A stretch of 64,000 nucleotides of DNA from Minisyncoccota bacterium (GCA_041667145.1 JBAYFP010000004.1:9100-73099); one strand, 5' to 3'. Counted from the first letter of the stretch, positions 24,230 through 41,430 are shown. The notes: generated by a model from the letters alone, not told the origin. Program-made: numbers and translations.

Positions 24230-24559
24230 ATGATAACTATAGAGGATTTTGAAAAAGTAGATATCAGAATAGGTAAAATTATCAGTGTTGAAGATTTTCC
24301 TGAGGCCAAGAAGCCGACATATAAGCTCCGGGTTGATTTTGGAGAGTTTGGAATTAAAAGTTCAAGCGCCAGAATTGTAGACTTGTATAAAAAAGATGAA
24401 CTTATGGAAAAGTTGGTTGTTTGCGTTACAAATTTACCTCCAAGAAAAGTAGGCTCGTTTATGTCTGAGGTTTTAACTACTGGATTCTACCGTGAAGACG
24501 GTTCGGTGGTTTTAGCTATTCCCGAAAAAGAAATACAACTTGGGGCTAAATTAGGGTAA
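24230..24559 (+). CDS. tRNA-binding domain protein (CsaA/Trbp111-like)
   Basis: MITIEDFEKVDIRIGKIISVE...CVTNLPPRKVGSFMSEV is an EMAP/Myf-like OB-fold. 109 aa. Confidence 0.75.
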   Translation: MITIEDFEKVDIRIGKIISVEDFPEAKKPTYKLRVDFGEFGIKSSSARIVDLYKKDELMEKLVVCVTNLPPRKVGSFMSEVLTTGFYREDGSVVLAIPEKEIQLGAKLG

Positions 24560-25010: not shown

Positions 25011-25150
25011 TATGCGGTGCACTCGGGTATGGTACCCGTGGGTTCAACCCTTGTAAGGACATTTTAGCATCTTTTTGAGAGTAAGACCAAGGCTTGTGGG
25101 TCGCTACTTGCAAATGCCAACAAATGCCAATTTTTTGATATAATGCAAAT

Positions 25151-25846
25151 ATGAAGATGACAGTCGGCGAATTAATAGCAAAAGAAATGAAAGAAGGAAA
25201 AAGCTCTGTAACCCTCCCAAATGGGGTTCTTCCTCCTGGGGCTAAAGAAGCATTTGAATCGCTTGCTAATATGAAGAAAAACATAGAAGAACCACTTAAA
25301 AAACAGCTTGGTGCGATAAGGTCTATAACTGATATATATGGACCACAATTAGAACGAATGGCTGAAGCACATAAAATGGTTCTTGAAAATTACATTATTC
25401 CAGAAGAAAGAATTCAAAATGTTAGAATTATTAACTCTGAAAATATTGGGGCTGGATCAAATAGAAAAGAAAGCAATGTTATAGTTGCATCATACCTATT
25501 GCCTAAAAATGCTAATTGGGAAAGTCTAAGCGTTCAGTTTCTAGATGGGCATGTTGTTAATGTTTCTTATTCAGGAATGAAATCACAAAAGTTTGATTTT
25601 AAAGATATGGGCTTTATGAACATGAAAACAAATAAGCCAGATTTAAAATGGGAATTACTCCAAGCAATTGCAGAAAATAATGGAGCATTAACTAAGTCTA
25701 AATGGAACAGAAAATTTGGGCGAAACGTTAAATATGAACTGAATGAGAGATTAAAGAAATTTTTTGGTATGGATTCAAATCCTATTTCTCACTACACTAA
25801 AAAAGGAGGATATCGAGCCACTTTTTCTCTCACAGAAGTTAAATAG
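25151..25846 (+). CDS. Hypothetical protein, first gene of the AT-rich island
   Basis: 231 aa. TGATATAAT extended -10 lies 10 nt upstream. No recognised motif. Confidence 0.5.
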   Translation: MKMTVGELIAKEMKEGKSSVTLPNGVLPPGAKEAFESLANMKKNIEEPLKKQLGAIRSITDIYGPQLERMAEAHKMVLENYIIPEERIQNVRIINSENIGAGSNRKESNVIVASYLLPKNANWESLSVQFLDGHVVNVSYSGMKSQKFDFKDMGFMNMKTNKPDLKWELLQAIAENNGALTKSKWNRKFGRNVKYELNERLKKFFGMDSNPISHYTKKGGYRATFSLTEVK

Positions 25847-25870
25847 TCATTGGGTGTTAAATGACGATAA

Positions 25871-25906
25871 AGGGACTTTTTCTTGTTTAAGTAAAAGTCC
25901 CTTTAT
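25871..25906. terminator. Stem-loop terminator (12-bp stem)
   Basis: AAAGGGACTTTT-TCTTGTTTAAGT-AAAAGTCCCTTT. Confidence 0.6.
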
Positions 25907-25958
25907 ATTTGGGTTATTTTTAATATCTATTGAATAGAAATAAAAAGAAATTGTCATT

Positions 25959-27293
25959 TTGTCATTCAATGACGAATATGTTTTAGAAGAGCAGCTAAGA
26001 ACCTCTTCCGAAGAACATATTATGAAAAAGCAAAAGTTAGTATGGTCAATTACTTCTCGCAAAGTAAGTGATCTAACAAAAAACGGATACAATCCGAGAA
26101 AACTAGGTGAGGGCGAAAAAAGAGACTTAGAAAAGTCTATCAAGGAATTTGGAACAGTAGTTCCTGTTATCCTTAATATTGGTTCCAGAGCCAATATACT
26201 TATCGGGGGTGAACAGCGCGTAAAAGTCTATGCCGATCTCGGGATAGAAAATGTTGAGTGTATGATACCTTCTCGAGAGTTAACACTTGAAGAAGAAAAA
26301 GAACTCAATCTGAGGCTAAACAAAAACACTGGATCATGGGATGAAGAACTTCTAAAAGAGTTCGACATGGATATGCTTCTTAATGTTGGTTTTGGAGACG
26401 AAGAATTACAAAATCTTTTTGATGACGTAGATCTTGTCGAAGATGATTTTGATATTGAAAAAGCTATTAAGGAAACTACTACACCAAAAGTTAAATTAGG
26501 AGAAATTTGGGAGATGGGAAAGCATCGCCTATTAGTCAGTGACTCCACCAATGAAGATCAAGTTAAAGAACTGATGAAAAATGATATGGCAGATATTATT
26601 TTTTGCGATCCTCCGTTCAATATTTCTTGGAACTATGGAGGAAAATATGGTGGAGAATACAAAGATAATAAAAGTGAGGAAGAATACTCTGAATTCATTA
26701 GTAAAAGCATTGAAACAGCTAAAAAGTTTGCCAAACCAAACTCTCATTTTTTCTATTGGTCAGATCCAAATAGTATAGGGCTAACACAATCTCTTTATGA
26801 TAAATATCAAATAAAGAAAAGACGGGTGTGTCTTTGGATAAAATCAAATCAAAATTGCACACCACAGATTGCTTGGAATAGACTCTATGAGCCATGTATA
26901 TATGGCACACTTGGTAATAAACCATATCTAAATAATAATTTTAGAAATGCTAATGAAATTCTTAATCAAGAAGTAACTACTGGTAATCAAGTCTTAGATG
27001 AACTACAAGATATGATAGACCTTTGGTTGGTTAAAAGAGACAATACTAGAAATTATTTACACCCTACTCAAAAACCTGTCACTTTAAACGAAAAACCATT
27101 CAAAAGATGTTCTGCCCCAGGACATATAATTTTCTCGGGATTCGCTGGAAGCGGATCCGATTTGATTGCATGTGAAGAATTAAATCGTGTATGGCGTGGA
27201 GTCGAAAAAGATTTGATCTTCGCAACTATCATCATAGATCGATGGGAAAAATTTACCAACCTTAAGGCAAAGAAAATCTATGAAAATAAATAA
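25959..27293 (+). CDS. ParB-like nuclease domain fused to a beta-class DNA N6-adenine/N4-cytosine methyltransferase
   Basis: ParB-like domain (KLVWSI...NGYNPRKL...ILIGGEQRVKV). MTase motif IV (IIFCDPPFN), then motif I (IFSGFAGSGSD) and HPTQKPV. The ORF starts at a TTG; an alternative ATG start is at 26022. Confidence 0.85.
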   Translation: MSFNDEYVLEEQLRTSSEEHIMKKQKLVWSITSRKVSDLTKNGYNPRKLGEGEKRDLEKSIKEFGTVVPVILNIGSRANILIGGEQRVKVYADLGIENVECMIPSRELTLEEEKELNLRLNKNTGSWDEELLKEFDMDMLLNVGFGDEELQNLFDDVDLVEDDFDIEKAIKETTTPKVKLGEIWEMGKHRLLVSDSTNEDQVKELMKNDMADIIFCDPPFNISWNYGGKYGGEYKDNKSEEEYSEFISKSIETAKKFAKPNSHFFYWSDPNSIGLTQSLYDKYQIKKRRVCLWIKSNQNCTPQIAWNRLYEPCIYGTLGNKPYLNNNFRNANEILNQEVTTGNQVLDELQDMIDLWLVKRDNTRNYLHPTQKPVTLNEKPFKRCSAPGHIIFSGFAGSGSDLIACEELNRVWRGVEKDLIFATIIIDRWEKFTNLKAKKIYENK

Positions 27294-28029
27294 AGGAGAA
27301 ATCTATAAGGTTGGAAATCATGTGATCGGTTGTGGTGATTCTACAGATCAAGTGTTTGTGTCTAAAGTAATTGGAAAAAATAAAATACGGGCTATTATTG
27401 CCGATCCCCCATACGGCGTTGCGTATGTAGAGAATAAAAAAGGTTTTACTAAGCTTGGAGTTAAAGATGAAAAAATAATTGCAGGCGATCATCTTCAAAG
27501 TGAAAATGAGTATGAAGATTTCACTAGAAAATATTTAGGTGCAGTTATTCCATATTTAGAAGAACATAATGCTTGTTATGTATTCAATGCTGATCCAATG
27601 TTTCCATCTCTGCGTATTGGTATGAAAAATGCAGGTTTTTATTACAGCCAAATGCTCATTTGGATTAAAAATCAACCTGTGATGAGCAGAAAAGATTATC
27701 TATCACAATATGAACTCATTGCATATGGATGGTTTGGTAAACATAAGACAGAAAGATCCAAAGCCAAAAATGTCATATATTATCCAAGACCAAACAAATC
27801 TAAACTTCACCCAACGCAAAAACCGATTGGGTTGCTTCGTAAAATTATTCCTGACAACACATCCATAGGAGATATTATTTACGATCCATTTTTAGGAAGT
27901 GGTTCTACTGCTATTAGTGCTGAACATTTAGGTCGAAAATGTATTGGTATAGAGATAGATGAGGAGTATGTATCTATTGTACTTCAAAGACTAGAAAAAT
28001 TGACTGGAGAAAAACCAGTTAAGATATAA
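27280..28029 (+). CDS. Beta-class DNA amino-methyltransferase (N6A/N4C)
   Basis: Motif IV (IIADPPYGV), HPTQKPIGL, motif I (IYDPFLGSGSTAISA). Overlaps the previous MTase by 14 nt. Confidence 0.85.
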   Translation: MKINKGEIYKVGNHVIGCGDSTDQVFVSKVIGKNKIRAIIADPPYGVAYVENKKGFTKLGVKDEKIIAGDHLQSENEYEDFTRKYLGAVIPYLEEHNACYVFNADPMFPSLRIGMKNAGFYYSQMLIWIKNQPVMSRKDYLSQYELIAYGWFGKHKTERSKAKNVIYYPRPNKSKLHPTQKPIGLLRKIIPDNTSIGDIIYDPFLGSGSTAISAEHLGRKCIGIEIDEEYVSIVLQRLEKLTGEKPVKI

Positions 28030-28033
28030 ATGT

Positions 28034-28408
28034 ATGAGCGAAGAAGACTTTATCAAGGATCCATACAAAAAACAAACATATGAGACGTATGCTCTTTGGA
28101 AGTCTCTCCCTTCATTTTTAAAAGGACAACCAAGAGTAGCTCTTGAAAAATTTGGAATCAGTGAAGAAATAATATTTGAACTTCTATCAATCAAGACTCA
28201 AGCTGAATTTTCAAAGGAATACAATATTGATGTTGGAACACTCACTGATTGGAATAAAAGATTAGAAAAGGATGGTTTAGTCAAAAATATCAATAGTTGG
28301 GCTAGAAAGTTAACTCCAAATGTTATCTTTGCTCTATACAAAAATATTACTAAACATGGCAGAGCTCATGAAGTAAGAGCTTGGTATGAATTAATTGAAA
28401 ATAATTAA
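28034..28408 (+). CDS. Hypothetical small protein with a putative HTH, like a terminase small subunit or transposase HTH
   Basis: 124 aa. IKTQAEFSKEYNIDVGTLTDWNKRLEK resembles an HTH. Confidence 0.45.
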   Translation: MSEEDFIKDPYKKQTYETYALWKSLPSFLKGQPRVALEKFGISEEIIFELLSIKTQAEFSKEYNIDVGTLTDWNKRLEKDGLVKNINSWARKLTPNVIFALYKNITKHGRAHEVRAWYELIENN

Positions 28409-28604
28409 TATGGAAAACATTAATTTAACTGAAATAAATACAATTCTCTCTGATACTCTTCGTAAGGTAGTAGGTAAAGAGATATCACTAAAGCAAGCAA
28501 GTATGATAGCGAAACTTGCCTATACACTTTCAAAGAATATTGTGAATGTGGAATTAAAAGACAGGGTTGAATTCCTTGAACAAGCACTTAAAGCAAGACG
28601 ATAA
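28395..28604 (+). CDS. Hypothetical small protein
   Basis: 69 aa. Translationally coupled, overlapping the previous gene by 14 nt. Confidence 0.35.
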   Translation: MKIINMENINLTEINTILSDTLRKVVGKEISLKQASMIAKLAYTLSKNIVNVELKDRVEFLEQALKARR

Positions 28605-28607
28605 TAT

Positions 28608-30125
28608 ATGAAAAATCTAGCAAACATTTTAAGAAAATCTAACCTTTCTCCCAAAGAAAGAATTATTACTATCGTTCAAAACGAAGTATATAAAGAAAAG
28701 AACGGTAAAGGAACTCTCACTGATTCAGAAATTTATGCTTTATCACAAGGATGGAAACCAAGAGATTCTCGTGAGGTTAAAGAATACAATAGTTATTTAG
28801 ATGCTTCTAAACTGGAAAGATCTATGAGATTAGATGCACGAATGTTTGCGTACCGATCAGAAAATTTCTTATTACGAAATAATATCTTGATTAATTACAC
28901 AACATACTTAGATAATACTTTAGAAGATTTTAAGAAAAATGACACTGTAAATAAATACATATCACAAGAAGAAATAATAAATTTCATTTTAAAAAATACT
29001 TACCTAAGTTATGAAAAATTAATTCATATAATTACTTTTAATAATCTTCCCAAAAATATTAAAGATGACCTACTTCTTCTAGATGAATATGCATCTTACG
29101 ATGGAAAGTATTTAGAGGATGAGGTTTTTCTTTATGAGATATTTAAGAAATCAAAAAAATTAAGTATACAGGATAAAAATATTCTTATTGATCATATATT
29201 TTCTCGTATGTATAATGACGGTTTTAGAAAAATCAAAAATGGCTCTGAAAAAGATGGTTTTATGATGTTACATTCTTTTGCTGAACTTACAATACAAAAT
29301 ATTTTTAAAAAATGGGCAGAATATGCTCATATTAATCTTGATGAGCAAAATATCAGTATCGAAAACTATTTACTTAATAAGTTTGAAGAATATGCAAAAA
29401 ATAGAGATCAAACAATGGAGATGGTTATAAGGGATATATTATCCAAGTGGATAGATGATGGATTGTTTGTGTCTGAATATATGCCAATATTTTTTAGCAA
29501 CAGAAAAGATACATGGAATGGAGATACAAAACTTACCCACAAAGAGATTTTTACAAAATGGTATACAGAATTACAAAAGACAAAAATTTATATTAATAAA
29601 CTTATTTCAAATAATGATATAGAGGTTAAATTTATAGATAGAGAAATTTTTGGTGACACAAAAAAGATTAAAATAGTAACAGGAGAAAGTTTATATAAAT
29701 GTAAAATAGATATTGATTTTGTGAAAGAATATAAAGATCAGATAACAATGCTATCACCAGTAGTGGGTTTATTTTTATTTATCAAAAAGCATAATAACCC
29801 ATTAAGTAGCTATAAAACACTGAAATCTTTTTGCGAGATGGCACAAACTTTTTCTGACATATTTGATATTGATATGACAGATAAGTATACAGAGTCTTTG
29901 CGTTCTTTTGAACAAGAATTATCTATGGTCAATCAAACTTTTAGTAAGTTGCTTGATAAAGTAATTGGACTTTTGTATACAAATGACAACATTAAATATG
30001 TCTTAGAAATAGAAGAAGATAATTTGTCTTTTGATTTAAATAAAGAATCTCTTGAACCGACAGATGAAATGATTAATGATTACAAGGGTGAGCTTAAAAA
30101 GATGGGTTTCGGAACCGATATATAA
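28608..30125 (+). CDS. Hypothetical 505-aa protein, no recognised domain; candidate restriction or defence component
   Basis: Long AT-rich ORF directly downstream of two MTases. No P-loop. Only a weak D..D-x5-EYK element. Confidence 0.55.
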   Translation: MKNLANILRKSNLSPKERIITIVQNEVYKEKNGKGTLTDSEIYALSQGWKPRDSREVKEYNSYLDASKLERSMRLDARMFAYRSENFLLRNNILINYTTYLDNTLEDFKKNDTVNKYISQEEIINFILKNTYLSYEKLIHIITFNNLPKNIKDDLLLLDEYASYDGKYLEDEVFLYEIFKKSKKLSIQDKNILIDHIFSRMYNDGFRKIKNGSEKDGFMMLHSFAELTIQNIFKKWAEYAHINLDEQNISIENYLLNKFEEYAKNRDQTMEMVIRDILSKWIDDGLFVSEYMPIFFSNRKDTWNGDTKLTHKEIFTKWYTELQKTKIYINKLISNNDIEVKFIDREIFGDTKKIKIVTGESLYKCKIDIDFVKEYKDQITMLSPVVGLFLFIKKHNNPLSSYKTLKSFCEMAQTFSDIFDIDMTDKYTESLRSFEQELSMVNQTFSKLLDKVIGLLYTNDNIKYVLEIEEDNLSFDLNKESLEPTDEMINDYKGELKKMGFGTDI

Positions 30126-30141
30126 GACAAATGGCAATAAA

Positions 30142-30170
30142 AAAGGGTGATCATACAATAATCACCCTTT
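30142..30170. terminator. Bidirectional stem-loop terminator between convergent genes
   Basis: AAAGGGTGAT-CATACAATA-ATCACCCTTT, flanked by A and T runs. Confidence 0.6.
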
Positions 30171-30195
30171 TTTATTGCTAGGCATTTACTCGAAC

Positions 30196-31182
30196 TTATT
30201 CTTTACTCCCATCTGCGTAAATGATGGTTGTAACTTCCCATTTATACTTTAAATTAACAAATTCAGTATCTTTTAATTTAACGTCTTCATCCATAAATTG
30301 ATTATAGTCTATTCCTGATTCCCAAACTTTACTTTGGTGCGCAGGAATTGATTTATCATAACCTACACTTATAGCTTTTATTTTATTATCAAAAATATCA
30401 TAAAAAGTTAAGACACCCTCTACTCCTTTAATATCTTTATCTGTTTCATTGGTTAGCTTTAGATTCATTTGAATTTGATCTTGATAAGTACCGTCAGTAT
30501 AATTTGCTTCATAGAAGCTCTTTTTTGTTACTTCAAGACTAACTTTATTTACTTGAGTGATTGGAGCTTGAGTATCTGCTTTAACTACTCCACCTTGTTG
30601 CAAGCTTTTACTTAACTCTTCTTTTGCCTTAGCAACATCAGAAACATGTTTTGCTGTAGAAATTGAACCCATAATAATTGCTAATACAATTAATGCCACA
30701 ATAGAAAGAACTACGCCATGTTTACTTGCTGAAGTTTCTATTTGTTTTATACCTGATGCTTCTGCTTTTTTCTCATATTTCTTTGTAACTAAATGCATAA
30801 TTATTCCTCCCGCAATTCCTACCATGAAAGCGATGATAGTTATAAATGTTCCACCAATTGCAGTTCCTATTGCACCACCAGCCTGTTCAAATTCATTAGC
30901 TGATGAAGAGATAACTTTTGAACCAACAACAAAAGTTAAAACTAATGCGGACACTGGAAGCAAGAAGAAAGATATTTCTGTTAAACGAAAAAATCTTTCT
31001 AAAATATGATTCTTCTCTGTGAATTGATATACATTCCAGATCATTAGAATCCAAATAATTAAGAACCCTATACCCATGTAAGAGTTACCAGTCATCCACG
31101 CATAATTTTGCCAAAAAATTAAAGCTGGTAACAATGCTAACAAAATCTTAAGAGACAAATGCTTTTTGATATTGTTTTCCAT
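30196..31182 (-). CDS. Hypothetical multi-pass membrane protein with a C-terminal extracytoplasmic domain
   Basis: 328 aa. Five predicted TM helices. Ser/Thr/Lys-rich beta-rich C-terminal domain. Confidence 0.55.
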   Translation of the reverse strand: MENNIKKHLSLKILLALLPALIFWQNYAWMTGNSYMGIGFLIIWILMIWNVYQFTEKNHILERFFRLTEISFFLLPVSALVLTFVVGSKVISSSANEFEQAGGAIGTAIGGTFITIIAFMVGIAGGIIMHLVTKKYEKKAEASGIKQIETSASKHGVVLSIVALIVLAIIMGSISTAKHVSDVAKAKEELSKSLQQGGVVKADTQAPITQVNKVSLEVTKKSFYEANYTDGTYQDQIQMNLKLTNETDKDIKGVEGVLTFYDIFDNKIKAISVGYDKSIPAHQSKVWESGIDYNQFMDEDVKLKDTEFVNLKYKWEVTTIIYADGSKE

Positions 31183-31232
31183 ATTTTCTATTTTGCGTTT
31201 TATTTATAAAACCCAGTGATAAGACGCAAAAA

Positions 31233-31340
31233 GCCCACCACATAGGTAGTGACCGAAGTCACTCATATCCGTTTCCAGATACGGCAGATCGTGCGACCCC
31301 ATATGATGGGTTCTTTATGCACGATCTGACTAACTTTCAC
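31233..31340. other. GC-rich, highly structured intergenic patch inside the AT-rich island; candidate ncRNA or recombination/att site
   Basis: Nested inverted repeats: GTGACCGAAGTCAC; CCGTTTCCAGATACGG; GATCGTGCGA-CCCATATGATGGG-TTCTTTAT-GCACGATC. Confidence 0.25.
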
Positions 31341-31467
31341 CATGCCTTTATTCCTAAAGGTTTAGGCTACTTAAACTATTAACTTGTAAAGAAATTATAC
31401 CTTATTTTTTAAGGTCGCACCATATTAGCTCACATTTAAATATTTGTGTAGTCGAGTTATCAACAGC

Positions 31468-34230
31468 TTATTTAATGTGGAATATTTTGATTTTTAGATT
31501 ATCAATAATTAGACTATCAGCGGATAATCCCTTAAAGAATTTAAATACTACGTTTGTTTTAAGTTCTTCAACTTTTGCTTCCTTGTCTTTGATACTATCA
31601 GGATCATTTTCTGTCCATTTCTCAACTATTTTTATTCTTTCCTGTTCAAGAGAAGAAAGATTCGTTATCGAAAGCATAAGACAATCTTCCGCCTTTTCTG
31701 CAAACTTTGTATTATCTTTATCTAAGGTTTTATCTTCTTCAATTTCAAATTCGTTTATTGAGAAAGAATCGTTTTCAAATATAAACATTGTGTCTGGGTA
31801 AGATTTATGTTCTTGGAATTTATATACAATGTAAAAAGGAATTCCATTTATTGATCCTTGGTAATAAGGACCATTATCTTCTCTTGAATTCGTTTCCTGC
31901 CAATGTGGTTTAAAATTTTCAGGATTTGTGTCTTGAATATTGAAATATCCATTAATCCACAGAACGATTGCACTGAGATTATTTTCAGCTGAAACAATTT
32001 GCCCGATTTTTTCCTTTTTTATAGGTATAATTTTACCAAACTTTTTATAAATTGATTCTAGGACTTTATTGTCTTCTGATCGAGCTAAATCTTCACCAAA
32101 TTGATTACCATTAGTATAATGAACATTCGTTTCAGCAATAAATTGTTCTTTATGTAATAAAATATTATATCCGAAACCATCTATCTTTTTTTCAGTATCC
32201 TTAGTGAATTTTTGGACTCTGTATAGCACACGAGCTTTTTCATATGAATCAAAGTTTTCTTTTACAAATTCATTAAATTTGGTATCGTCCAATGATTGTT
32301 CAATTATTTTTTTTCTTACGTCAGTTTCATATTTTTCGGCAATTTGAGAAAAAATGTTGTAAAATTTAATCTTTACAGAGATAAATTGTTCATCTGTTAT
32401 GTGTGTGATAGAAACAAAAGAATGTTGTGTCTTGTTAAGCAGTGGATCAAATTGCTGATTTCCTTCTTTAATATGTGATAACCCATCGTTATAGTTTCCA
32501 TCTTTGATATTAATAGCAAGATTTGGATCATCTACAATAATTTTAAGAATTCTATCAACTAATAAATTTTTAATGTCATCATGAATTGTCACGGTGTAGA
32601 CTTCTCCCTCAGGCATACCCCAACTATCCCAACCGAATGATCCTCTTTTTTCAGAAATTTCAATTGCTTTCAAATAAATAGAAAGATAATAGTTTAAATT
32701 ATCTTCAACATTTCTATAATAATACACTGGGTCTTTTTGTAACGAAGATAAAAGTTTAGAAAAAGCTTCTTTGTAAAAATCTCCTCCACTATTATGTTTA
32801 TATGCCCAAGCAGTAAAACCAAAAATTACAGCTTTCTTTATTAAAATTAATTCATCTAGCTGTGGAAACTCGTCGTGTTCGTAACTTTCACGAGAAAATG
32901 AATTATCTAAAAAAGCTAAGGCTTTTGAAAAAGCTTCTAGATTTTTTTTATCAAAAGCAATCTTTATTTGTCCATTCAAGCTAGAGAGAAAATTTATTGC
33001 GTAATCAATATAATTTTTATCTTTTTTGATCTTTGATTTAATAGAATATTTTGCAACTTCGTTAAGCCATCTAAAGTAGGCATCATGAAACTTAGTTTGC
33101 TCATCAGGACTAAGATCAAAAGATTCATAAAAAGCATGACCAAAATTTCTTAAGAAGATATTAAAAGTCTGAACTGATTTTTTATCTAGGGACTGGTATA
33201 TATAACCCAAAGAGAAACCAACCACTTTCTTTATACAGTCGATATCTCCTTGTTTAAATGAATACTTTTGAAGAGGAAAAATAATATCATCATTTATAAA
33301 CTGAATTATGTCCACATAAGAATCAGCTTTACAAGTAAAATGATCAACAAAACTAGAGAACTCTTTCAGTTTCAACTCAAGCCCCTTAGAATCCTCCATT
33401 TTTATTAAGGAAAACATTTCAGAATAATAAGACCTCATTTCTGCTTCAAGGTATGAAGACGGGTTTTCATATTCATCGCTAATGGAAACAAAGGATCGTA
33501 ATTTTTCCTCGTCTATTTTTTGTCCTTCTTCTTTTTTAATTCCTAATATAACATCATCAAAATCAACAGGTGCTCCATTTGAAATACTGTAAGGTATATA
33601 GTAAGAATACTTTTTAGAAATTTTCTGACTAGTTTCTTTTGTTAAATAAATTTCTTCCGTAAATAAAACATTTATATCAATGTTTGTTATATAACCAGAA
33701 CTCTGTGCCCGAATAAAATAATAAGAATCATTATTTTCATCAAGTAAAAATCTTTCCACATCCTTACCGTCCCTTTTTTCTTCTAGTAATTTCTGAAGTG
33801 CATCATTTTTAATTTTCAAATCCTCAAACTCTTTGAGTTTTTCTTTTATCACTTCTTCTTTGAATTTCTTTACAGCTCTTTCTCCTGAAAGTTCATTTTC
33901 ATTAAATTTAAACACTTCTTTAAAAGCATCAAAAATACTCAACAATAAACTAGCTGATAATATAAAATTTACAAATTCATAAAATGGACTTGGAAAAGCT
34001 AAAAAGCTTAATGCAAAAAATCCTAAACACTGAGTTATAACCTTTTTTATATTTGTATTTTTAGTGAGGGTAATTTTCTCACTTTTATCCTGAAGCCCGT
34101 ATATGTAAACCCCTAGAGAAATAACAATAGTAAAGATTACACCGTAAATTGCTATGAAGGTCTCATTTGCACAAATAAAACCAACTAAGCATGTTTGACT
34201 AATATTGGGAATTACTAAAAGATTTGACAT
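31468..34230 (-). CDS. Hypothetical 920-aa protein with an N-terminal TM region (~3 helices) and a large cytoplasmic domain of unknown function
   Basis: Long uninterrupted ORF. Coiled-coil segment (KLKEFEDLKIKNDALQKLLEEKRD). No NTP-binding or nuclease motif recognised. Confidence 0.6.
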   Translation of the reverse strand: MSNLLVIPNISQTCLVGFICANETFIAIYGVIFTIVISLGVYIYGLQDKSEKITLTKNTNIKKVITQCLGFFALSFLAFPSPFYEFVNFILSASLLLSIFDAFKEVFKFNENELSGERAVKKFKEEVIKEKLKEFEDLKIKNDALQKLLEEKRDGKDVERFLLDENNDSYYFIRAQSSGYITNIDINVLFTEEIYLTKETSQKISKKYSYYIPYSISNGAPVDFDDVILGIKKEEGQKIDEEKLRSFVSISDEYENPSSYLEAEMRSYYSEMFSLIKMEDSKGLELKLKEFSSFVDHFTCKADSYVDIIQFINDDIIFPLQKYSFKQGDIDCIKKVVGFSLGYIYQSLDKKSVQTFNIFLRNFGHAFYESFDLSPDEQTKFHDAYFRWLNEVAKYSIKSKIKKDKNYIDYAINFLSSLNGQIKIAFDKKNLEAFSKALAFLDNSFSRESYEHDEFPQLDELILIKKAVIFGFTAWAYKHNSGGDFYKEAFSKLLSSLQKDPVYYYRNVEDNLNYYLSIYLKAIEISEKRGSFGWDSWGMPEGEVYTVTIHDDIKNLLVDRILKIIVDDPNLAINIKDGNYNDGLSHIKEGNQQFDPLLNKTQHSFVSITHITDEQFISVKIKFYNIFSQIAEKYETDVRKKIIEQSLDDTKFNEFVKENFDSYEKARVLYRVQKFTKDTEKKIDGFGYNILLHKEQFIAETNVHYTNGNQFGEDLARSEDNKVLESIYKKFGKIIPIKKEKIGQIVSAENNLSAIVLWINGYFNIQDTNPENFKPHWQETNSREDNGPYYQGSINGIPFYIVYKFQEHKSYPDTMFIFENDSFSINEFEIEEDKTLDKDNTKFAEKAEDCLMLSITNLSSLEQERIKIVEKWTENDPDSIKDKEAKVEELKTNVVFKFFKGLSADSLIIDNLKIKIFHIK

Positions 34231-34295
34231 TACACAGTAATTATACCATAAAACACGCTAAAATAAAGGCATTTGGGATATTTTAGTTACCAACA

Positions 34296-34345
34296 CTATG
34301 GCAGTGGGACGCTCTGGACTCGTAGGACGGGTTGCGTCATTAATA
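34296..34345. other. GC-rich segment upstream of the recombinase gene; candidate attachment or recombination site
   Basis: GGCAGTGGGACGCTCTGGACTCGTAGGACGGGTTGCGTC in AT-rich surroundings. Terminal inverted repeat GACGC…GCGTC. Confidence 0.25.
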
Positions 34346-34352
34346 TAGGTAT

Positions 34353-35681
34353 ATGAAAATAGATAACCCAAATCAAGAGAAAGGTGTAGAGAAAATCAAG
34401 GTAGAACCAAAGAAGATAAGGTACTGTCTTTATGCAAGAAAATCAACAGAATCAGAAGAAAGACAGGTTCTTTCAATAGACAGCCAAATCAGCGAGATGC
34501 TCCAATTAGCCGATCGTGAGGGGCTTGAGGTGGTCACTATGAAGCGTGAATCGCATAGTGCTAAAGAGACTGGGCAACGACCTGTATTCAATGAAATAAT
34601 TGAGGAAATCAAACAAGAGAAATTCAATGCAATACTCACATGGGCACCCGATCGTATTTCAAGAAATGCAGGTGACCTTGGAAAAATAGTAGATTTAATG
34701 GATTCAGGAAAATTACATATGATACGAACCTTCGGTCAAACATTTGGGAATAATCCAAATGAAAAATTCTTACTGATGATTCTTGGCTCACAAGCAAAAC
34801 TAGAAAATGATAATCGAGGTATTAACGTGAAGCGAGGACTACGAACAAGAGTGGAGATGGGGTTATGGCCTGGGATGGCACCGCTTGGCTACTTAAACCA
34901 AAAGTTAATGGATCGGAAGTGTCAGATAGTGATTGATCCTGATAGAGCACCTATAATAAAGAAAATGTTTGAGAAAGTAGTATATGAACACTGGAGCGGT
35001 AGAAAAGTATACAATTGGTTACGATTTGATTTAAATTTCTATACTCGAGGAAATAAACCCCTGACACTCTCAGGGGTTTATCGTATATTCAATATGCCAA
35101 TCTATTATGGACCATTTGAATATCCTAGAAATTCTGATAATTGGTATCAAGGAAGTCATACGCCAATAATCACTCAGGAGTTATTTGAAAAAGCTCAAGC
35201 ACAATTAAAGAGAGATAGAATCGTGAGAGAAAATAGAGAGTTTGCTTTTACTAAATTATTTACATGTGGAATGTGTAGTTCAGGAATATCTGCTCAAGAG
35301 AAATACAAGGAACTTAAAGATGGAACTACTGCTAAGTATGTTTACTACTCCTGTTCGAAGGCTAGAGATAGAAATTGTAAAAACAAATATATTAGAGAAG
35401 AAGAATTGATTGATGAATTATTTAAAGTTATTGATAAGGTAAGTATTAATGAATTAGGCATGCGAATTAAACTCGAAGAAGAAATTAAACGATTCAATCG
35501 ACTTCAAAGGTTGGCGACAAAAGGTACGCCAAAGTATTCGATCAATGAAGACGATGTAAACACAAGAGAATATGCCAAGTATGTACTTCGAGAAGGCACA
35601 CCCTTAGAAAAGAGAGAATTGCTTGGACATTTAAGGAGTAGGTTGGTGTTGAATGATAAAAAAATCACATTAGTAACTTAA
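34353..35681 (+). CDS. Large serine recombinase (resolvase-family catalytic domain, recombinase domain and zinc ribbon)
   Basis: YARKSTESEERQVLSIDSQ (catalytic Ser region), AILTWAPDRISRN, and C-terminal FTCGMCSSG…YYSCSK…CKNKY zinc ribbon. 442 aa. Confidence 0.85.
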   Translation: MKIDNPNQEKGVEKIKVEPKKIRYCLYARKSTESEERQVLSIDSQISEMLQLADREGLEVVTMKRESHSAKETGQRPVFNEIIEEIKQEKFNAILTWAPDRISRNAGDLGKIVDLMDSGKLHMIRTFGQTFGNNPNEKFLLMILGSQAKLENDNRGINVKRGLRTRVEMGLWPGMAPLGYLNQKLMDRKCQIVIDPDRAPIIKKMFEKVVYEHWSGRKVYNWLRFDLNFYTRGNKPLTLSGVYRIFNMPIYYGPFEYPRNSDNWYQGSHTPIITQELFEKAQAQLKRDRIVRENREFAFTKLFTCGMCSSGISAQEKYKELKDGTTAKYVYYSCSKARDRNCKNKYIREEELIDELFKVIDKVSINELGMRIKLEEEIKRFNRLQRLATKGTPKYSINEDDVNTREYAKYVLREGTPLEKRELLGHLRSRLVLNDKKITLVT

Positions 35682-35727
35682 TACTATAATATTTCAAAAA
35701 ATCATTGAAAATGGTAATATTTAATAT

Positions 35728-36408
35728 ATGAAAAAAGTGATTATATTAGGAGCTAGTGACGGTCTTGGCAAGGCAATTGCCAATTTATTTAATAGTGAAA
35801 AAATAGAAGTAATTAATATAAGTAGAACACCTTGTGATATATCAGGTGTTACAAATATTGCTTGTGATTTATCAATAGAAAAAGACATCGATAATGCTGT
35901 TAATACTATAAAAGAAAAGCATAGTGATTTTGATACAATAATAAATTGTGCTGCTATTGTAGCGATGGAAAAGATAAACGAGATTACATATCCTAAACTT
36001 GAAAAAGCATTTAAAATAAACACTATAGCACCATTATATTTTCTATCTTCTCTGTTTGATACTATTGTAAAAAATGAAGCAGATATATTAAACATTGGTA
36101 CAACAGCAGACCTAAAGGCTGGTTTTGTTGATCAATTAGCATACACTTCAACTAAATATGGATTAAGGGGTGGTTCATATAACCTTGGATTAGAATTAGC
36201 AAAAACAAAAAGCAGAATGATATATGTTCACTGTGGTGGTATGAATACACAGATGCATGAAAAAGATTATGGAAAGAAAATAGAAGACCCAACTGAATGG
36301 ATGGATACAAAAGATGTAGCTGGTATAGTTTTGTATTTATTAAAATTACCTAAACAAGTAGAGATAACAGAAATTACTATTAGTCGTAAGAAAAGAAGAT
36401 TAATTTAA
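35728..36408 (+). CDS. Short-chain dehydrogenase/reductase (SDR) family oxidoreductase
   Basis: ILGASDGLGKAIA Rossmann motif and YTSTKYG (YxxxK). 226 aa. Confidence 0.75.
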   Translation: MKKVIILGASDGLGKAIANLFNSEKIEVINISRTPCDISGVTNIACDLSIEKDIDNAVNTIKEKHSDFDTIINCAAIVAMEKINEITYPKLEKAFKINTIAPLYFLSSLFDTIVKNEADILNIGTTADLKAGFVDQLAYTSTKYGLRGGSYNLGLELAKTKSRMIYVHCGGMNTQMHEKDYGKKIEDPTEWMDTKDVAGIVLYLLKLPKQVEITEITISRKKRRLI

Positions 36409-36422
36409 AAAAATAAAATTTT

Positions 36423-37631
36423 ATGATTGAAAATAGTATTGTTTATCGAGACTTCAAAGGAAAATATGAATACCTCCCTATTTCAAAAGCGGAAGGTTCT
36501 TTAATTTGGGATAGAGATGGAAAAAGATATATAGATTTTTCATCAGCTTGGAACGTGACAAATCTAGGATGGAATAACCCAGAAATCAACGAAGCGATAA
36601 TTGAACAAACGAAGAAAAATGTTCAGGGTCTTCTTTGGGGTTCAGATCCGATTCAAGAAGAATATGCCAAGGCTTTGACAGAAGCACTACCCGAAGGACT
36701 CGATGCTTGTATTAAAGAAACAAGTGGCACAGAGTCAATCGAGGTTGCAATTAAAGTTGCTCGTGTTTACACAGAAAGAAAAAGAATCATTGGTTTTAAT
36801 TCCCATTATCACGGACAGTTATTTGCCTCACTTGCTATTGGGTATCCAAAAGATTCACATCAAAAACTTCAACCGTTAGTTCCAGAAATTGAACCTATCC
36901 CATTTCCACACAATAAAATAAGTGAAGAAGATTTCAATAAATTCCTGTCAGATTTTGAAGAATTACTCTCAAAAAAAGATATCGCTGCTGTTGTTACAGA
37001 ACCAGGAATCATAACTGGTTGGGGTTCAACACTTATTGCGTATCCTAGGTTTCTAACAAAACTTCGAGAGATTACTTCAAAGTACGGAACATTACTTATT
37101 GTTGATGAAGTTGGAACAGGTTTTTCACGAACAGGAAAACTTTTTGGCATACAACATGAAAATGTAACACCAGATATGATTGTATTTGCAAAAGGAATAT
37201 CAAATGGGGCTTCTGCTATTGGTGCAGTTGTGGGTAAATCTGAAATGTTCGAAAGGGCATTTTCAGAAGCAATGCTAATCTCTACCTTTGGTTGGACTCC
37301 AATAGCATGTGCCATTTCTTTAAAAGCTCTTCAAATTCATTTAAGAGATAAAACTTGGGAAATGGCAGAGAAGAAAGGAAATTATATACAAGAAAAATTA
37401 AAAGCTCATGTTGGAAATACTGTCGTTGAAGTACGAGGAATGGGATTAGAGATAGGATTACAATTCAAAGATGCAGAAACTTGTAAAAGAATTCAAAAGG
37501 CATGCTTTGCCGACGGACTTCATGTCGTTGTAGGGAGTGGAGATAATATGCAAATTATGCCACCACTTACAATTTCACAAGAATTACTAGATGAAGGTTT
37601 GAATATTTTAATTAAAAATTTGAAAAGTTAA
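36423..37631 (+). CDS. Class-III (PLP-dependent) aminotransferase
   Basis: IVDEVGTGFSRTGKLFG and PDMIVFAKGISNG (Schiff-base Lys region). 402 aa. Confidence 0.85.
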   Translation: MIENSIVYRDFKGKYEYLPISKAEGSLIWDRDGKRYIDFSSAWNVTNLGWNNPEINEAIIEQTKKNVQGLLWGSDPIQEEYAKALTEALPEGLDACIKETSGTESIEVAIKVARVYTERKRIIGFNSHYHGQLFASLAIGYPKDSHQKLQPLVPEIEPIPFPHNKISEEDFNKFLSDFEELLSKKDIAAVVTEPGIITGWGSTLIAYPRFLTKLREITSKYGTLLIVDEVGTGFSRTGKLFGIQHENVTPDMIVFAKGISNGASAIGAVVGKSEMFERAFSEAMLISTFGWTPIACAISLKALQIHLRDKTWEMAEKKGNYIQEKLKAHVGNTVVEVRGMGLEIGLQFKDAETCKRIQKACFADGLHVVVGSGDNMQIMPPLTISQELLDEGLNILIKNLKS

Positions 37632-37642
37632 ATAATAAATTT

Positions 37643-37981
37643 ATGAAAATCATAAAAAAATTAAACGAAACTTTTGTACGTGAAGATGCTCACGGTGGTA
37701 GTGGTGGACGTAAATTATTATTATCAGAAAATGAGATAAATAATGTGCAAGGTATGACATATGGGTTTTTGCCAGCAAATTCTAAATTTGCATGGCATAT
37801 GCATGAAAAAATGAACGAGGTAATGATTGTTTTAAAAGGTCAAGGAAATGTCCGAGACGAAGATGGTATGTATACTTATTCAACAGGAGACGTATTTATA
37901 TTTCCAAAAGATATTTTTCATGAAATTGAAAACGTATCTAGCGAAGAAAACGAATATATTTTTGTACGAGTTTATGAATAA
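37643..37981 (+). CDS. Cupin-domain protein
   Basis: 112 aa. HMHEKMNEVMIVLKG...GDVFIFPKDIFHEIEN two-motif cupin pattern. Confidence 0.55.
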   Translation: MKIIKKLNETFVREDAHGGSGGRKLLLSENEINNVQGMTYGFLPANSKFAWHMHEKMNEVMIVLKGQGNVRDEDGMYTYSTGDVFIFPKDIFHEIENVSSEENEYIFVRVYE

Positions 37982-38032
37982 AAAAAGAATTAGTATACAA
38001 CAAGGACCGTTCTTGTTGTATACAATATAACT

Positions 38033-38716
38033 ATGGGAGAAATAACAAAATTTTATAAAGAAGAAGAAATTGCGAAAAAAGTAATAGATTTTTGTTTGGG
38101 GAAATATCAACTAATATTTATTTCTGGTAACGGAGGATCTGGGAAAACAACTCTTAGTAAACAATTAGTAAAAGAGATTAATTCACGTGGACTAGAGGCT
38201 AATTGTATTGATATGGATGATTTTATGATTGACAGTAAAATACGTAAAAGCACTCAAAAGGAATGGATTGATGTAAAAAACAACAAAAGAGTTAGTTATC
38301 ATACATGGGCATTTAAAGAATCATACCATTTAGACTCTTTGGAAACTTTAATTCATTTATTGATGAACGGAAAGGATTGTTCTTATAGACATAAAAGCGG
38401 AGAAGAGACAGAACTAAAATCAGAATTTCCTTTAACAATAATTGAAGGAGTAGGTACAGCTTTTCTTAAAAAAGAGGAAATGATGTATGGAATTTTTGCA
38501 ATGTGTGATTTTAAAGTTGAAGTTGATAGACGAATAAAGAGAGCCCGTGATGGTGAAGATAATTTGTCACGTGAAGAAGTTGAAGAAAAAGCCACTGAAA
38601 GAAATGAACAATTTGAAGTAACAATCCTACCTGAGAAAAATAAATTTGATTTGGAATTGTGGAGTTTAGAAGACTACTCTTTTAGAGTGGAGCGAGACAA
38701 TTTAAATATACTATAA
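38033..38716 (+). CDS. P-loop nucleoside/nucleotide kinase (uridine-kinase/PRK-like)
   Basis: Walker A ISGNGGSGKTTL. Later IIEGVG. 227 aa. Confidence 0.55.
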   Translation: MGEITKFYKEEEIAKKVIDFCLGKYQLIFISGNGGSGKTTLSKQLVKEINSRGLEANCIDMDDFMIDSKIRKSTQKEWIDVKNNKRVSYHTWAFKESYHLDSLETLIHLLMNGKDCSYRHKSGEETELKSEFPLTIIEGVGTAFLKKEEMMYGIFAMCDFKVEVDRRIKRARDGEDNLSREEVEEKATERNEQFEVTILPEKNKFDLELWSLEDYSFRVERDNLNIL

Positions 38717-38730
38717 ATCATAGTAAAAAT

Positions 38731-39177
38731 ATGGAAAACTTAATTCAAAACATAGTTAAAAATGCCGAATCTTTAAAGAATAAATACACTGATCAAAAAA
38801 ATATTCCAGTTAACTATGCCTGTATTTTTTGCCAATCTAAAGAAGAACAAACTAATTTTTTAGAAGAGGCACATAAACTAGGTATGGTAATACAAGAAAC
38901 TCCAAGCGGTCCACTCTTTAAAATATCTTTAGAAACTGTTGCTGGTAAATTACAATTATTAAAAATTAGAAAACCAGATTCAACTCGACAAGAACGTGGA
39001 GATGCTGATTTTACGGTCGTTGATTATCCCTCCTTTAAAGAAAAGTATTTAAATAAAGCTGGATTTTCACTTATACAAAAAGAAAATTTTGAAATGATTG
39101 AACTGTACGAAAAAGACAATAACGTAAGAGTATATTTTTCATTTCCTCCTTTAGATAAACAGTTAAATTTGATATAA
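38731..39177 (+). CDS. Hypothetical protein
   Basis: 148 aa. No motif recognised. Confidence 0.45.
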   Translation: MENLIQNIVKNAESLKNKYTDQKNIPVNYACIFCQSKEEQTNFLEEAHKLGMVIQETPSGPLFKISLETVAGKLQLLKIRKPDSTRQERGDADFTVVDYPSFKEKYLNKAGFSLIQKENFEMIELYEKDNNVRVYFSFPPLDKQLNLI

Positions 39178-39184
39178 TTAAAAT

Positions 39185-40087
39185 ATGAATAAAATAGTGG
39201 TCACCCAAGATTTGGGCTTGAATGACGAAGAAAGAGAAAAACTAAATAAACTTGGTGAAGTTAAATATTACGAAGATTTACCAAAAACACCAGAAGAATG
39301 GTTAGAAAGATGTAAAAATGCTGATGTTATTTGTTCTGGTAAATTTGGGTTAAAACTTAAATATCAAGAATTAGAAAATGCTTTTTTGTCCTTGCCTTTT
39401 GTTGCAACAGACTTTTTAAATAGAGATATATTAAAGGATAGAAATATAAAAGTTTCGAATTGTCCTGGGTGCAACAAAGAAGCTGTAAGTGAGTGGATAA
39501 TTGCAATGGTTCTTGATTTGTTAAGAGATTTACCAAACTGGATAAATAGAAAAGAATCTGACAGTATCCCAAAAGAAACAAAGGGATTAGTTGGTAAAAA
39601 TATTACAATTTTAGGTAAGGGTAATGTTGGGTCTAGGGTTGGTAAAATATGTGAAGCATTGGAAATGAATGTTAAATATTTTACAAAGAATGATAATCTA
39701 ATTGAATCTATAAAAGATGCTGATGTGATAGTTGATACCTTAGGTTCAAATGAGACAACCAAAGGTTTACTAAATAAAGAATTCTTTAATTCTTTTAAAA
39801 AGGGTTCGTATTTTATAACTGTAACTAGCCCTAAAATATATGATATAGAAGCGATGATTGAAGCTTTAGATAAAAATATTTTAGCAGGTGTTGCTAGTGA
39901 TTGTGCTTCAATACAAGTCGGTGATGTTAATGATCCTTTCTATATTAAACTAGCTAATCATCCAAAGGTTTTAGCTACTCCACATATAGCTTATAATACT
40001 GATGCAACTGATAGAAAAGCTAGCAAAATGATGATTGATAATATTGAAGCTTATTTGAAGGGGGTGCCTATAAATCTAGTTGAATAG
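39185..40087 (+). CDS. D-isomer-specific 2-hydroxyacid dehydrogenase family protein (NAD-binding)
   Basis: GKNITILGKGNVGSRVGKI Rossmann motif. Catalytic His region (ATPHIAYNT). 300 aa. Confidence 0.8.
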   Translation: MNKIVVTQDLGLNDEEREKLNKLGEVKYYEDLPKTPEEWLERCKNADVICSGKFGLKLKYQELENAFLSLPFVATDFLNRDILKDRNIKVSNCPGCNKEAVSEWIIAMVLDLLRDLPNWINRKESDSIPKETKGLVGKNITILGKGNVGSRVGKICEALEMNVKYFTKNDNLIESIKDADVIVDTLGSNETTKGLLNKEFFNSFKKGSYFITVTSPKIYDIEAMIEALDKNILAGVASDCASIQVGDVNDPFYIKLANHPKVLATPHIAYNTDATDRKASKMMIDNIEAYLKGVPINLVE

Positions 40088-40133: not shown

Positions 40134-40203
40134 AACTTGTAGCTTTGTGGGTCACGCTTAGTACATAACTAAATGGGTCATCAAAACTAACAGGTTGTCA
40201 ATG

Positions 40204-40288
40204 CGGAGGCGGTGAGATTCGAACTCACGGTGCCTTTCGACACTCCGGTTTTCAGGACCGGTGCACTAAACCGCTATGCGACGCCTCC
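40204..40288 (-). tRNA. tRNA-Ser (anticodon UGA, long variable arm); CCA not encoded
   Basis: Minus-strand GGAGGCGTCGCATAGCGGTTTAGTGCACCGGTCCTGAAAACCGGAGTGTCGAAAGGCACCGTGAGTTCGAATCTCACCGCCTCCG. Acceptor GGAGGCG/CGCCTCC. Anticodon stem CCGGT/ACCGG with loop CCTGAAA. Extra arm GTGTC-GAAA-GGCAC. Discriminator G. Position 33 reads C, which is unusual. Confidence 0.7.
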
Positions 40289-41100: not shown

Positions 41101-41430
41101 ATGATAAATATAGAAGATTTTAAAAAAGTTGATATTGTAGTTGGAGAAATATTGTCAGCAGAAAAAGTTCCTGATACAGATAAATTATTAAAATTATCTG
41201 TTGATTTAGCTGAAGAGAAACCAAGACAAATAGTTTCTGGTATTTCTTTGTATTTTCCAGATTGTAGTGTTTTGGTTGGTAAAAAATGTATGTTTATCGC
41301 TAATCTCGAAACGAGAGTGATTCGTGGCATAGAAAGCCAAGGGATGATATTGGCTGTTTCTACTTCAGATGATAAATTTTCTTTACTCGAGCCAAATGGT
41401 GAAATTCCTGTTGGCACGCGAGCAAGATAA
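41101..41430 (+). CDS. tRNA-binding domain protein (CsaA-like), second, divergent paralog
   Basis: MINIEDFKKVDIVVGEILSAEKVPDTDKLLKLSVDL. About 30% identical to 24230..24559. 109 aa. Confidence 0.75.
   Translation: MINIEDFKKVDIVVGEILSAEKVPDTDKLLKLSVDLAEEKPRQIVSGISLYFPDCSVLVGKKCMFIANLETRVIRGIESQGMILAVSTSDDKFSLLEPNGEIPVGTRAR

Follow-up and report, generated by a model that had tools for sequence, protein, structure and literature searches.

What is the block of genes at positions 25151-35681 of a 64,000-nucleotide stretch of DNA (hereafter the window) from a Candidatus Paceibacterota metagenome contig? A first-pass annotation, made from the sequence alone, had listed in it a fusion of a ParB domain with a DNA methyltransferase (MTase), a second MTase, several large proteins of no recognisable family and a serine recombinase, and had proposed a mobile defence system or prophage remnant. 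All of its open reading frames (ORFs) are present where it placed them, and we refer to their products by length in amino acids (aa). We consider it likely that the block is one member of an apparently undescribed family of mobile islands of about 11 kb in Paceibacterota, bacteria of the Candidate Phyla Radiation (CPR). Equally likely, the stretch from 25013 to about 35700 (36435 if the gene for a short-chain dehydrogenase/reductase, SDR, is included) is an integrated mobile genomic island with (i) a large serine recombinase (LSR), (ii) a conserved backbone, and (iii) exchangeable cargo. Serine-recombinase islands are already known as a kind. As far as our literature searches show, the backbone, the terminus, the link to the LOOT RNA and a membrane-anchored cargo protein with a predicted capsid-like fold are apparently undescribed, and no account of the island family was found in the literature searched. 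Features are collected in Table 1; L numbers denote the loci and contigs compared.

A left end defined to the base

The left terminus is sharp to the base, at window position 25013 (GCGGTGYACTCGGGTATGGTACCC). Similarity in nine other genomes (L013 and eight more) starts exactly at 25013 or 25014, and the DNA outside is unrelated. A metagenome scan with a 22-mer of the left terminus found 41 more junctions, where the outside DNA is diverse. These comparisons define the left end of the island, 138 nt before the first ORF, at which the first-pass annotation had begun its block. The terminal motif is single-copy in the window (0 copies expected by chance), and no second full or partial copy was found at the right end, in the window or in any full-length element. 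We also considered the terminal block as a non-coding RNA (ncRNA). Rfam returned nothing and RNAalifold recovered the invariant palindrome only; with no Rfam match and no covariation, we rejected this reading in favour of a DNA site.

On the right side, six relatives cease matching at the recombinase stop codon (~35681), where the earlier boundary had been drawn, and the closest relative, L013, also shares the next gene (SDR), up to 36435. The idea that the element is bracketed by a duplicated arm of the recombinase leader, taken from the flank of L046, was rejected, with within-element alignments at chance level.

Some copies of the left terminus lie just downstream of other recombinase genes (L039, L046, L077 and L081), restarting ~110 nt (L039, at a contig break) or 324 nt (L081, 1749-2088) after the recombinase stop codon. 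This placement is suggestive of tandem arrays or (assembled) circular junctions, in which attP may be revealed. A second, distant clade of LSRs (33-48% identical to that of the window) is often found a few hundred bases from the left-terminus motif (L043, L053/L061, L070, L081 and L040), and the motif may be the site of this clade, not of the window-type recombinase.

A family with a collinear backbone

The island belongs to a family that comprises at least 26 species-level genomes and 41 metagenome contigs. The 26 loci were drawn from the contexts of homologues of the 505-aa protein and from a scan of species-representative genomes, and come from metagenome-assembled genomes of Paceibacterota, Nomurabacteria and Parcubacteria. 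Backbone order is strictly collinear in all 26: ParB-MTase, MTase, a 124-aa protein with a putative helix-turn-helix (HTH), a protein of 64-69 aa and one of ~500 aa. An LSR gene lies 0.2-8 kb further downstream, on the same strand. Homologues of the 505-aa protein form at least 65 clusters, and none has a Pfam domain. The architecture that we propose runs from the left terminal site through a backbone operon (variable first gene, ParB-MTase, MTase, HTH, small and ~500-aa helical proteins) and the cargo slots to the LSR.

A variant element in L007/L008 carries genes for small and large terminase subunits (TerS/TerL) in place of the 124-, 69- and 505-aa genes. Its TerL matches Terminase_6C at 28 bits (cut-off 22.6), and its TerS-like protein has HTH_Tnp_1_2. 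The variant also has a recombinase, an MTase and a 231-like protein, and it adjoins a homologue of the 920-aa family. The 505-aa protein, whose place is the TerL slot of this variant, was tried as a diverged large terminase and rejected: it has no BLASTP similarity and no P-loop, and its structure matches are generic helical ones.

Horizontal mobility and the insertion neighbourhood

We compared the divergence of the element with that of the host genes beside it. In comparison with L012/L015, the backbone and recombinase of the window show 73-93% identity (56-58% for the 505-aa protein), as against 29-50% for the adjacent RuvX, tRNA_bind and PilM. The element proteins are far closer than the adjacent host proteins, and hence the element is horizontally mobile. 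L013, from a different genome, shares ~90% DNA identity with the window in exactly three blocks (25013-30129, 31191-31470 and 34285-36435), with unrelated flanks on both sides. Recombinase identity, 57-100% in relatives, is decoupled from that of the backbone: the recombinase of L018 is 100% identical and its 505-aa protein 78%, and the corresponding values for L033 are 96% and 42%. We infer from this decoupling that modules are exchanged between elements.

The 442-aa recombinase has the full LSR domain set, including the resolvase domain and zinc ribbon recognised earlier, and the catalytic serine motif. It matches PF00239 (Resolvase) at 72 bits, PF07508 (Recombinase) at 48.7 and PF13408 (Zn_ribbon_recom) at 34.2, the latter two above cut-off, and the phrog_95 integrase family at 3e-64; its best NCBIfam matches, CcrB and XisF, are both below cut-off. 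This domain set, the divergence contrast and the sharp left junction together bear out the proposal of a mobile island with an LSR.

Many copies have tRNA-Ser(UGA)-RuvX-tRNA_bind-PilM close by, and either orientation relative to RuvX is seen. Could the region then be ordinary, vertically inherited chromosome? Several copies do adjoin the same host genes (tRNA-Ser-RuvX-tRNA_bind-PilM and the gene for a 155-aa protein), and GC content equals that of the genome. The markedly lower GC of the first-pass annotation was not found: the island is at 0.315, its 10-kb flanks at 0.327 and 0.324 and the remaining window at 0.341, with dips confined to the 505-aa gene (0.264) and the 920-aa gene (0.286), and the GC argument falls as well. 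A block in syntenic position with core-like GC, which that annotation had named as a sign against mobility, is thus superficially what one sees, yet the element is far less diverged than the host genes there. Moreover, more than 40 contexts show unrelated flanks at a base-sharp terminus, the element is found in both orientations relative to RuvX, and the flanks of L013 differ on both sides. We therefore give vertical inheritance hardly any probability. Since divergence is far lower in the element than in the host genes beside it, the sequences point to repeated insertion at a hot spot, not vertical descent, as the origin of the shared neighbourhood.

Several points weigh against the mobile-island reading. 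The presence of many copies in the same host neighbourhood could partly reflect inheritance. No excised circle, empty site or attB was found; exact look-up of the flanking host proteins returned element-bearing contigs only. No flanking direct repeat was seen, nor any right-terminal conserved block downstream of the recombinase, at whose stop codon the sequences diverge. The island encodes no transfer machinery (conjugation or capsid set), and of its backbone proteins only the MTases can be assigned a function. That the recombinase moves the island DNA is suggested by genetic linkage. With these points in mind, we propose for the mobile island that the recombinase would integrate and excise it at the hot spot near tRNA-Ser-RuvX. 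Integration targeted to the tRNA itself is not supported, as no 3' fragments of tRNA-Ser were found at element ends within 6 mismatches.

Table 1. Features of the island (window coordinates) and LOOT copies in other elements (coordinates of the named locus). TM, transmembrane.
Feature	Coordinates	Strand	Remarks
Left terminal block	25013-25150	+	Near-invariant 24-mer GCGGTGCACTCGGGTATGGTACCC at 25014-25037, imperfect palindrome GGTGYAC-N9-GTACC; rest of block with conserved hairpins, tandem CAAATGCCAA x2 (25111-25130) and -10 TATAAT (25139-25144) ahead of first gene
231-aa backbone protein	25151-25846	+	45-93% identical in relatives; 29% to 294-aa protein of L008
ParB-N/beta-class N6_N4 DNA methyltransferase fusion, 444 aa	25959-27293	+	Pfam, PHROG; 63-87% identical, collinear in all loci
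Second beta-class N6_N4 DNA methyltransferase, 249 aa	27280-28029	+	PF01555, 114 bits; 73-96% identical in all loci
124-aa HTH-like protein	28034-28408	+	Weak HTH_28 and MarR matches (Pfam)
Small backbone protein, 64-69 aa	28395-28604	+	In every locus, 56-97% identity
505-aa backbone protein	28608-30125	+	All-alpha, 35-90% identity
Bidirectional terminator hairpin between convergent 505-aa and 328-aa genes	30134-30178		20-bp stem
Cargo slot A, 328-aa membrane protein	30196-31182	-	4-5 TM segments (hydropathy scan), soluble C-terminal domain
LOOT block	31191-31470	-	93.6% conserved with L013 though both flanking genes differ; -10 box 31394-31401; terminator 31235-31252; GTTATCAAC core at outer edge
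LOOT RNA (first structured patch)	31248-31368	-	Rfam RF03000, 73.6 bits against gathering score 46.4; model 1-121 of 121
Core S1	31456-31464	+	GTTATCAAC, dyad GTT-N3-AAC; left edge of slot B
Cargo slot B, 920-aa protein	31468-34230	-	N-terminal TM anchor; helical domain ~257-670; predicted HK97/encapsulin-like C-terminal domain ~680-920
Core S2	34286-34294	+	GTTACCAAC; 59 nt upstream of recombinase ATG; right edge of slot B
Recombinase leader (second structured patch)	34306-34340	+	GGGACGC-N21-GCGTCAT; kept in 8/8 aligned elements
Large serine recombinase, 442 aa	34353-35681	+	Catalytic motif YARKSTESE (translation)
Post-recombinase cargo	35701-36445	+	SDR gene 35728-36408; 23-nt direct repeat, 19/23, 35701-35723 and 36423-36445
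LOOT copy, L013	16851-16971
LOOT copy, L018	12634-12754
LOOT copy, L025	12019-12145
LOOT copy, L026	16558-16679
LOOT copy, L032	12486-12612
LOOT copy, L033	7425-7546
LOOT copy, L034	12034-12154
LOOT copy 1, L036	3028-3162
LOOT copy 2, L036	13040-13165

Exchangeable cargo and the defence question

The 328-aa gene, LOOT, the 920-aa gene and the SDR gene stand in exchangeable positions. What the interval from the ~500-aa gene to the recombinase contains is unrelated between lineages. In the window, this interval holds the 328-aa gene, LOOT and the 920-aa gene, and in L012 a single 1350-aa protein. Diversity-generating retroelements (DGRs; target, Avd and reverse transcriptase, RT) directly follow the ~500-aa gene in L013, L024, L026, L029 and L031, and Type III restriction-modification (R-M) systems are found in L024, L029 and L031. 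L037 carries Type I HsdR with an AAA_15 ATPase, L025 a DUF4011 helicase-REase with DUF2779, and L015 an ABC transporter with queuosine-related genes; L038 has almost no cargo. The slots are also independent of each other: L018 has a 95%-identical copy of the 328-aa gene beside an unrelated slot-B gene (819 aa), and slot A of L013 instead holds a DGR and an SNase protein. The SDR gene is common to the window and L013 only, with the second copy of its 23-nt repeat at the L013 breakpoint, and in L015 and L024 a Shedu SduA_C gene takes its position. The slots of sister elements mostly deliver defence or variability genes. DGRs (target ~300 aa, Avd, RT) are a frequent cargo at a fixed position (e.g. 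L013 11649-14515); the window copy is without one.

The two cargo proteins of the window had been annotated as a 5-TM protein and a TM-anchored protein. Hydropathy scans allow 4-5 TM segments in the first, whose C-terminus matches phrog_16659 at 2e-7, and agree with an N-terminal anchor in the second. The 231-, 69-, 505-, 328- and 920-aa proteins had no significant match in Pfam, PADLOC or NCBIfam. PADLOC likewise gave none for the 124- and 442-aa proteins; the sole weak match was that of the 231-aa protein to Csx19 (E 0.0078, 14 bits).

We next weigh the proposal that the methylases are the modification half of a new restriction or defence system, with the 505-aa protein alone, or the 505-, 328- and 920-aa proteins jointly, as effector. 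Three observations favour it: the MTase, 124-, 69- and 505-aa genes are strictly co-inherited; the rate of evolution of the 505-aa protein is much higher than that of its neighbours, which is common in arms-race proteins; and the cargo of the family is rich in defence genes. The joint version fails on linkage: the 505-aa gene is always linked to the MTases, as part of the backbone, whereas the 328- and 920-aa genes are independently exchangeable, co-inherited neither with the MTases nor with each other. These two genes are cargo, not methylase partners, and are not supported as effectors. For the 505-aa protein, no nuclease, ATPase or other catalytic fold or motif was found, and its invariant residues are mostly aromatic. 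A PADLOC check of the region, which the first-pass annotation had suggested, yielded nothing beyond generic MTase models, and no nuclease family or fold, and hence no cognate restriction enzyme of a Type II R-M system, was found in any island protein. Finally, in every case the module goes with the terminal site, and in most cases with the recombinase too, which fits a mobile-element backbone. A new defence system is accordingly an improbable reading, and we assign the 505-aa protein a low probability of being its effector.

Backbone proteins

Both methylases have the motif order of the beta class, with DPPY or DPPF ahead of the FxGxG motif that binds S-adenosylmethionine. In the 444-aa protein (PF01555, N6_N4_Mtase, 70 bits) the motifs are DPPF...FAGSGS. 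Its ParB_N match, at 24.5 bits, is just below the Pfam cut-off of 26.3; nevertheless the annotated fusion holds, as phrog_498 matches at 4e-84 and PHROG ParB families at 4e-26, and homologues have PF02195. Because homologues align from residue 22 only, the start is probably the ATG at 26022 and the TTG at 25959 is probably wrong. The 249-aa MTase, whose gene overlaps that of the fusion by 14 nt (27280-27293) as annotated, has DPPY near its N-terminus and FLGSGS near its C-terminus (read from the translation), which gives the beta-class order. Orphan methylases on mobile DNA usually serve to pre-methylate it against restriction. Here, the two enzymes would pre-methylate element and host DNA, so that the island survives restriction in a new host.

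The 124-aa protein is the most conserved of the backbone (70-99% identity, 81-99% excluding L019 and L037). It had been called HTH-like, and an HTH match is present, if weak; the protein may regulate the backbone operon via the CAAATGCCAA repeats. The 231-aa position is replaceable, a sister clade having an unrelated 393-aa protein there. The 505-aa gene evolves fastest in the backbone, and a confident all-alpha model of its product gives only generic helical matches and no informative fold relative.

The LOOT RNA and paired cores

The first-pass annotation had noted two GC-rich structured patches, 31233..31340 and 34296..34345, as recombination sites or ncRNAs. Both are real and conserved in relatives: the first is a LOOT ncRNA and the second is the recombinase leader. 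As for recombination sites, a candidate core (34286-34294) lies just upstream of the second patch.

LOOT is present in about half of the elements. Besides the window, nine element copies from eight distinct loci carry it, in the cargo region and always on the same strand, antisense to the backbone. Among ten element copies, 23 of 30 pairs show compensatory double changes. Judged by its sequence, LOOT is a small RNA that is carried by the island and independently transcribed from its own putative promoter and terminator. Rfam lists LOOT only as a metagenome-derived RNA (PMC7779021). Its context in Paceibacterota serine-recombinase islands appears to be new, and no functional information on it was accessible in the literature searched. 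LOOT is reportedly a candidate motif of Weinberg et al. 2017.

Exact copies of GTTAYCAAC occur only twice in the 64 kb, one on either side of the 920-aa gene and both at the mosaic breakpoints. Thirteen of 15 elements, and the L007 variant as well, have a recombinase-proximal core 65-125 bp upstream of the recombinase; at the outer edge of the LOOT block, a core in the same orientation is seen in 7 of 9 distinct LOOT-bearing elements. The exceptions are L036, which lacks the LOOT-edge core, and L026, in which LOOT, core and recombinase are contiguous and one core doubles as the recombinase-proximal core. We lean towards GTTAYCAAC being a recombination site, since the paired cores have the geometry that insertion of a circle at such a site, upstream of the recombinase, would produce. 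Cargo would then be swapped by site-specific recombination at the dyads, or else by homologous exchange between conserved blocks.

The main competitor, somewhat less probable in our estimate and also counting against the mobile-island reading, is that the cores are operators of a dimeric regulator of the LOOT and recombinase promoters, cargo differing only through homologous recombination. A dyad, GTT-N3-AAC, upstream of two transcription units is what an operator would look like. In several elements the recombinase-proximal copy has conserved sequence on both sides (...AAATAAAGGCGTTTTA-core-ACTATGG...), which is not like a simple hybrid site; LOOT-less elements hold a single core, and homologues of the 920-aa gene elsewhere are without cores. 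An operator does not readily explain, however, why, relative to L013, L018, L033 and L025, the breakpoints are on the cassette side and no more than ~5 nt away from the cores, or why the two cores are in direct orientation in 7 of 7 slot-B elements, as circle insertion would give. The contiguity of LOOT, core and recombinase in L026 is likewise expected of an unoccupied site. We separately tried the 920-aa homologues outside the islands as autonomous cassettes and rejected the idea, as there are no cores at their ends.

If the cores are recombination sites, a more far-reaching possibility, and one that we think rather unlikely, is a cassette-capture platform run by the LSR, an analogue of integrons in CPR bacteria. 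The core would be the insertion site, inserted genes would be bracketed by two cores, LOOT would be a dedicated RNA that regulates recombinase or cargo or joins in recombination, and the 920-aa protein would be a domesticated, membrane-tethered payload with a capsid fold.

A predicted capsid-like fold and the question of phage origin

We examined the 920-aa protein by structure prediction. Its AlphaFold2 model has a pLDDT of 79 overall and 83-93 across most of the C-terminal domain. A Foldseek search of BFVD placed Caudovirales major capsid proteins (MCPs) first, at probability 0.99-1.0 and with weak E-values. The domain (~680-920) is thus predicted to be HK97/encapsulin-like; no match to capsid or encapsulin families was found at the sequence level. 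The 920-aa family (34 clusters, 43-100% identity) is restricted to Patescibacteria. Some members occur without the 328-aa gene, and the two are not obligate partners. Homologues are also found among core genes (mreB-920-holB, L010) or beside the TerS/TerL variant of L007/L008. As remote homologues we considered the 819-aa (L018) and 839-aa (L032) slot-B proteins, and rejected them at an hhalign probability below 1%. A GGTATAAT box at 34240-34247 (minus strand), identical to the -10 box of LOOT, lies ~10 nt upstream of the 920-aa ATG (34230), and this spacing suggests an mRNA with no leader or a very short one. In the mobile island, the 920-aa membrane protein would be one payload of the cargo slots; if the predicted HK97 fold is true, its family is an unusual non-viral use of that fold, membrane-anchored and sometimes chromosomal.

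The island might instead be a decayed prophage or phage satellite, helper- or self-packaged, with the recombinase as phage integrase, the ParB-MTase as an anti-restriction enzyme, the 124-aa protein as small-terminase-like and the 920-aa protein as a derived MCP. ParB-N6_N4 MTase fusions are enriched in phages and prophages (PMC12704722), in agreement with the first-pass annotation. The phage connection that it drew also gains from the predicted capsid-like fold, from the PHROG matches of the MTases and integrase, and from the L007/L008 variant, in which recombinase, TerL, TerS-like protein, MTase and 231-like protein stand beside a 920-aa-family homologue. Against this, most family members lack the 920-aa gene, whose slot is variable; the gene has homologues among core genes as in L010; and its product carries an N-terminal membrane anchor, which is not typical of capsid proteins. 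Nor is the 505-aa protein a terminase, portal or capsid protein. Of the hallmarks of a tailed prophage (TerL, portal, MCP), the window has no TerL or portal, and its HK97-like domain is predicted only at the level of fold, in optional cargo; protease, tail and lysis genes were not found in the window either, and the left terminus is carried by no IMG/VR contig. Hence we hold a prophage or satellite to be unlikely. A phage-derived origin of the mobile island is a different matter: given the ParB-MTase fusion, the predicted HK97-like cargo and the TerS/TerL variant, it is plausible and compatible with island mobility.

Comparison with known elements

Staphylococcal cassette chromosome (SCC) elements, such as SCCmec, are moved by Ccr large serine recombinases. 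Like them, the island is a small chromosomal element linked to an LSR, has no conjugation or capsid genes of its own, prefers one chromosomal neighbourhood, carries highly variable cargo and shows mosaic and tandem arrangements, and the best NCBIfam match of its recombinase is CcrB. Unlike them, it has a single recombinase and not a CcrAB pair (CcrB at 129 bits, far below the equivalog cut-off of 900), its target is not rlmH, it lacks flanking direct repeats (the terminal motif is single-copy and there is no flank-to-leader repeat), its backbone genes are unrelated and it is found in a CPR bacterium. In its workings the island resembles an SCC-type element, without being a member of the SCC family.

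With temperate phages and their satellites (serine-integrase prophages; phage-inducible chromosomal islands, PICI, and their capsid-forming counterparts, cf-PICI) the island shares a serine integrase, a phage-type ParB-MTase and MTase, and the sister TerS/TerL variant. It differs in the missing phage genes and IMG/VR copies described above, and in that its gene with a predicted capsid fold is optional and encodes a membrane-anchored protein. As in integrons, a candidate insertion site lies just upstream of the recombinase, cargo is divergent, and the insert is bracketed by two cores in direct orientation; in contrast to integrons, the recombinase is a serine and not a tyrosine enzyme (IntI), attC-like folded sites or repeats are lacking, and inserts number one or two at most and form no array, at sites that are candidates only. 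The RNA of the window is a full-length member of the LOOT family (RF03000), set apart by its defined genetic context. Relative to encapsulins and HK97 MCPs, the 920-aa protein has ~650 N-terminal residues fused to the domain (membrane anchor and large helical domain), no family match in sequence, and neither an adjacent cargo enzyme nor phage structural genes in the window.

CPR bacteria, or Patescibacteria, make up a large share of bacterial diversity, and their mobile elements have barely been described. The family reported here can be recognised by its invariant 24-nt terminus and five-gene backbone. Its cargo of R-M systems, DGRs, Shedu and unknown genes travels between Paceibacterota that are only distantly related. 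The family is a route for gene flow as well as a source in which new defence genes of these bacteria can be sought. For the orphan LOOT RNA, the islands provide a first host and genetic context, which makes its function testable. A compact serine recombinase with short candidate sites may also interest genome engineers.

Neighbouring genes

Two paralogous genes with a tRNA-binding domain (CsaA-like) lie at window 24230-24559, just left of the island, and at 41101-41430, in the RuvX-PilM cluster. Between the island and tRNA-Ser(UGA) (40203-40288, minus strand), the interval 36423-40087 holds genes for an aminotransferase, a cupin, a PRK-like kinase, a 148-aa protein and a 2-hydroxyacid dehydrogenase. 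The corresponding interval, up to tRNA-Ser-RuvX, holds unrelated genes in L012/L015 (Peptidase_S51; Shedu SduA_C). This seems to be another variable zone, possibly older, accreted cargo. On the related Patescibacteria contig L010, positions 821-1056 (minus strand) match a group I intron (RF00028, 70.9 bits).

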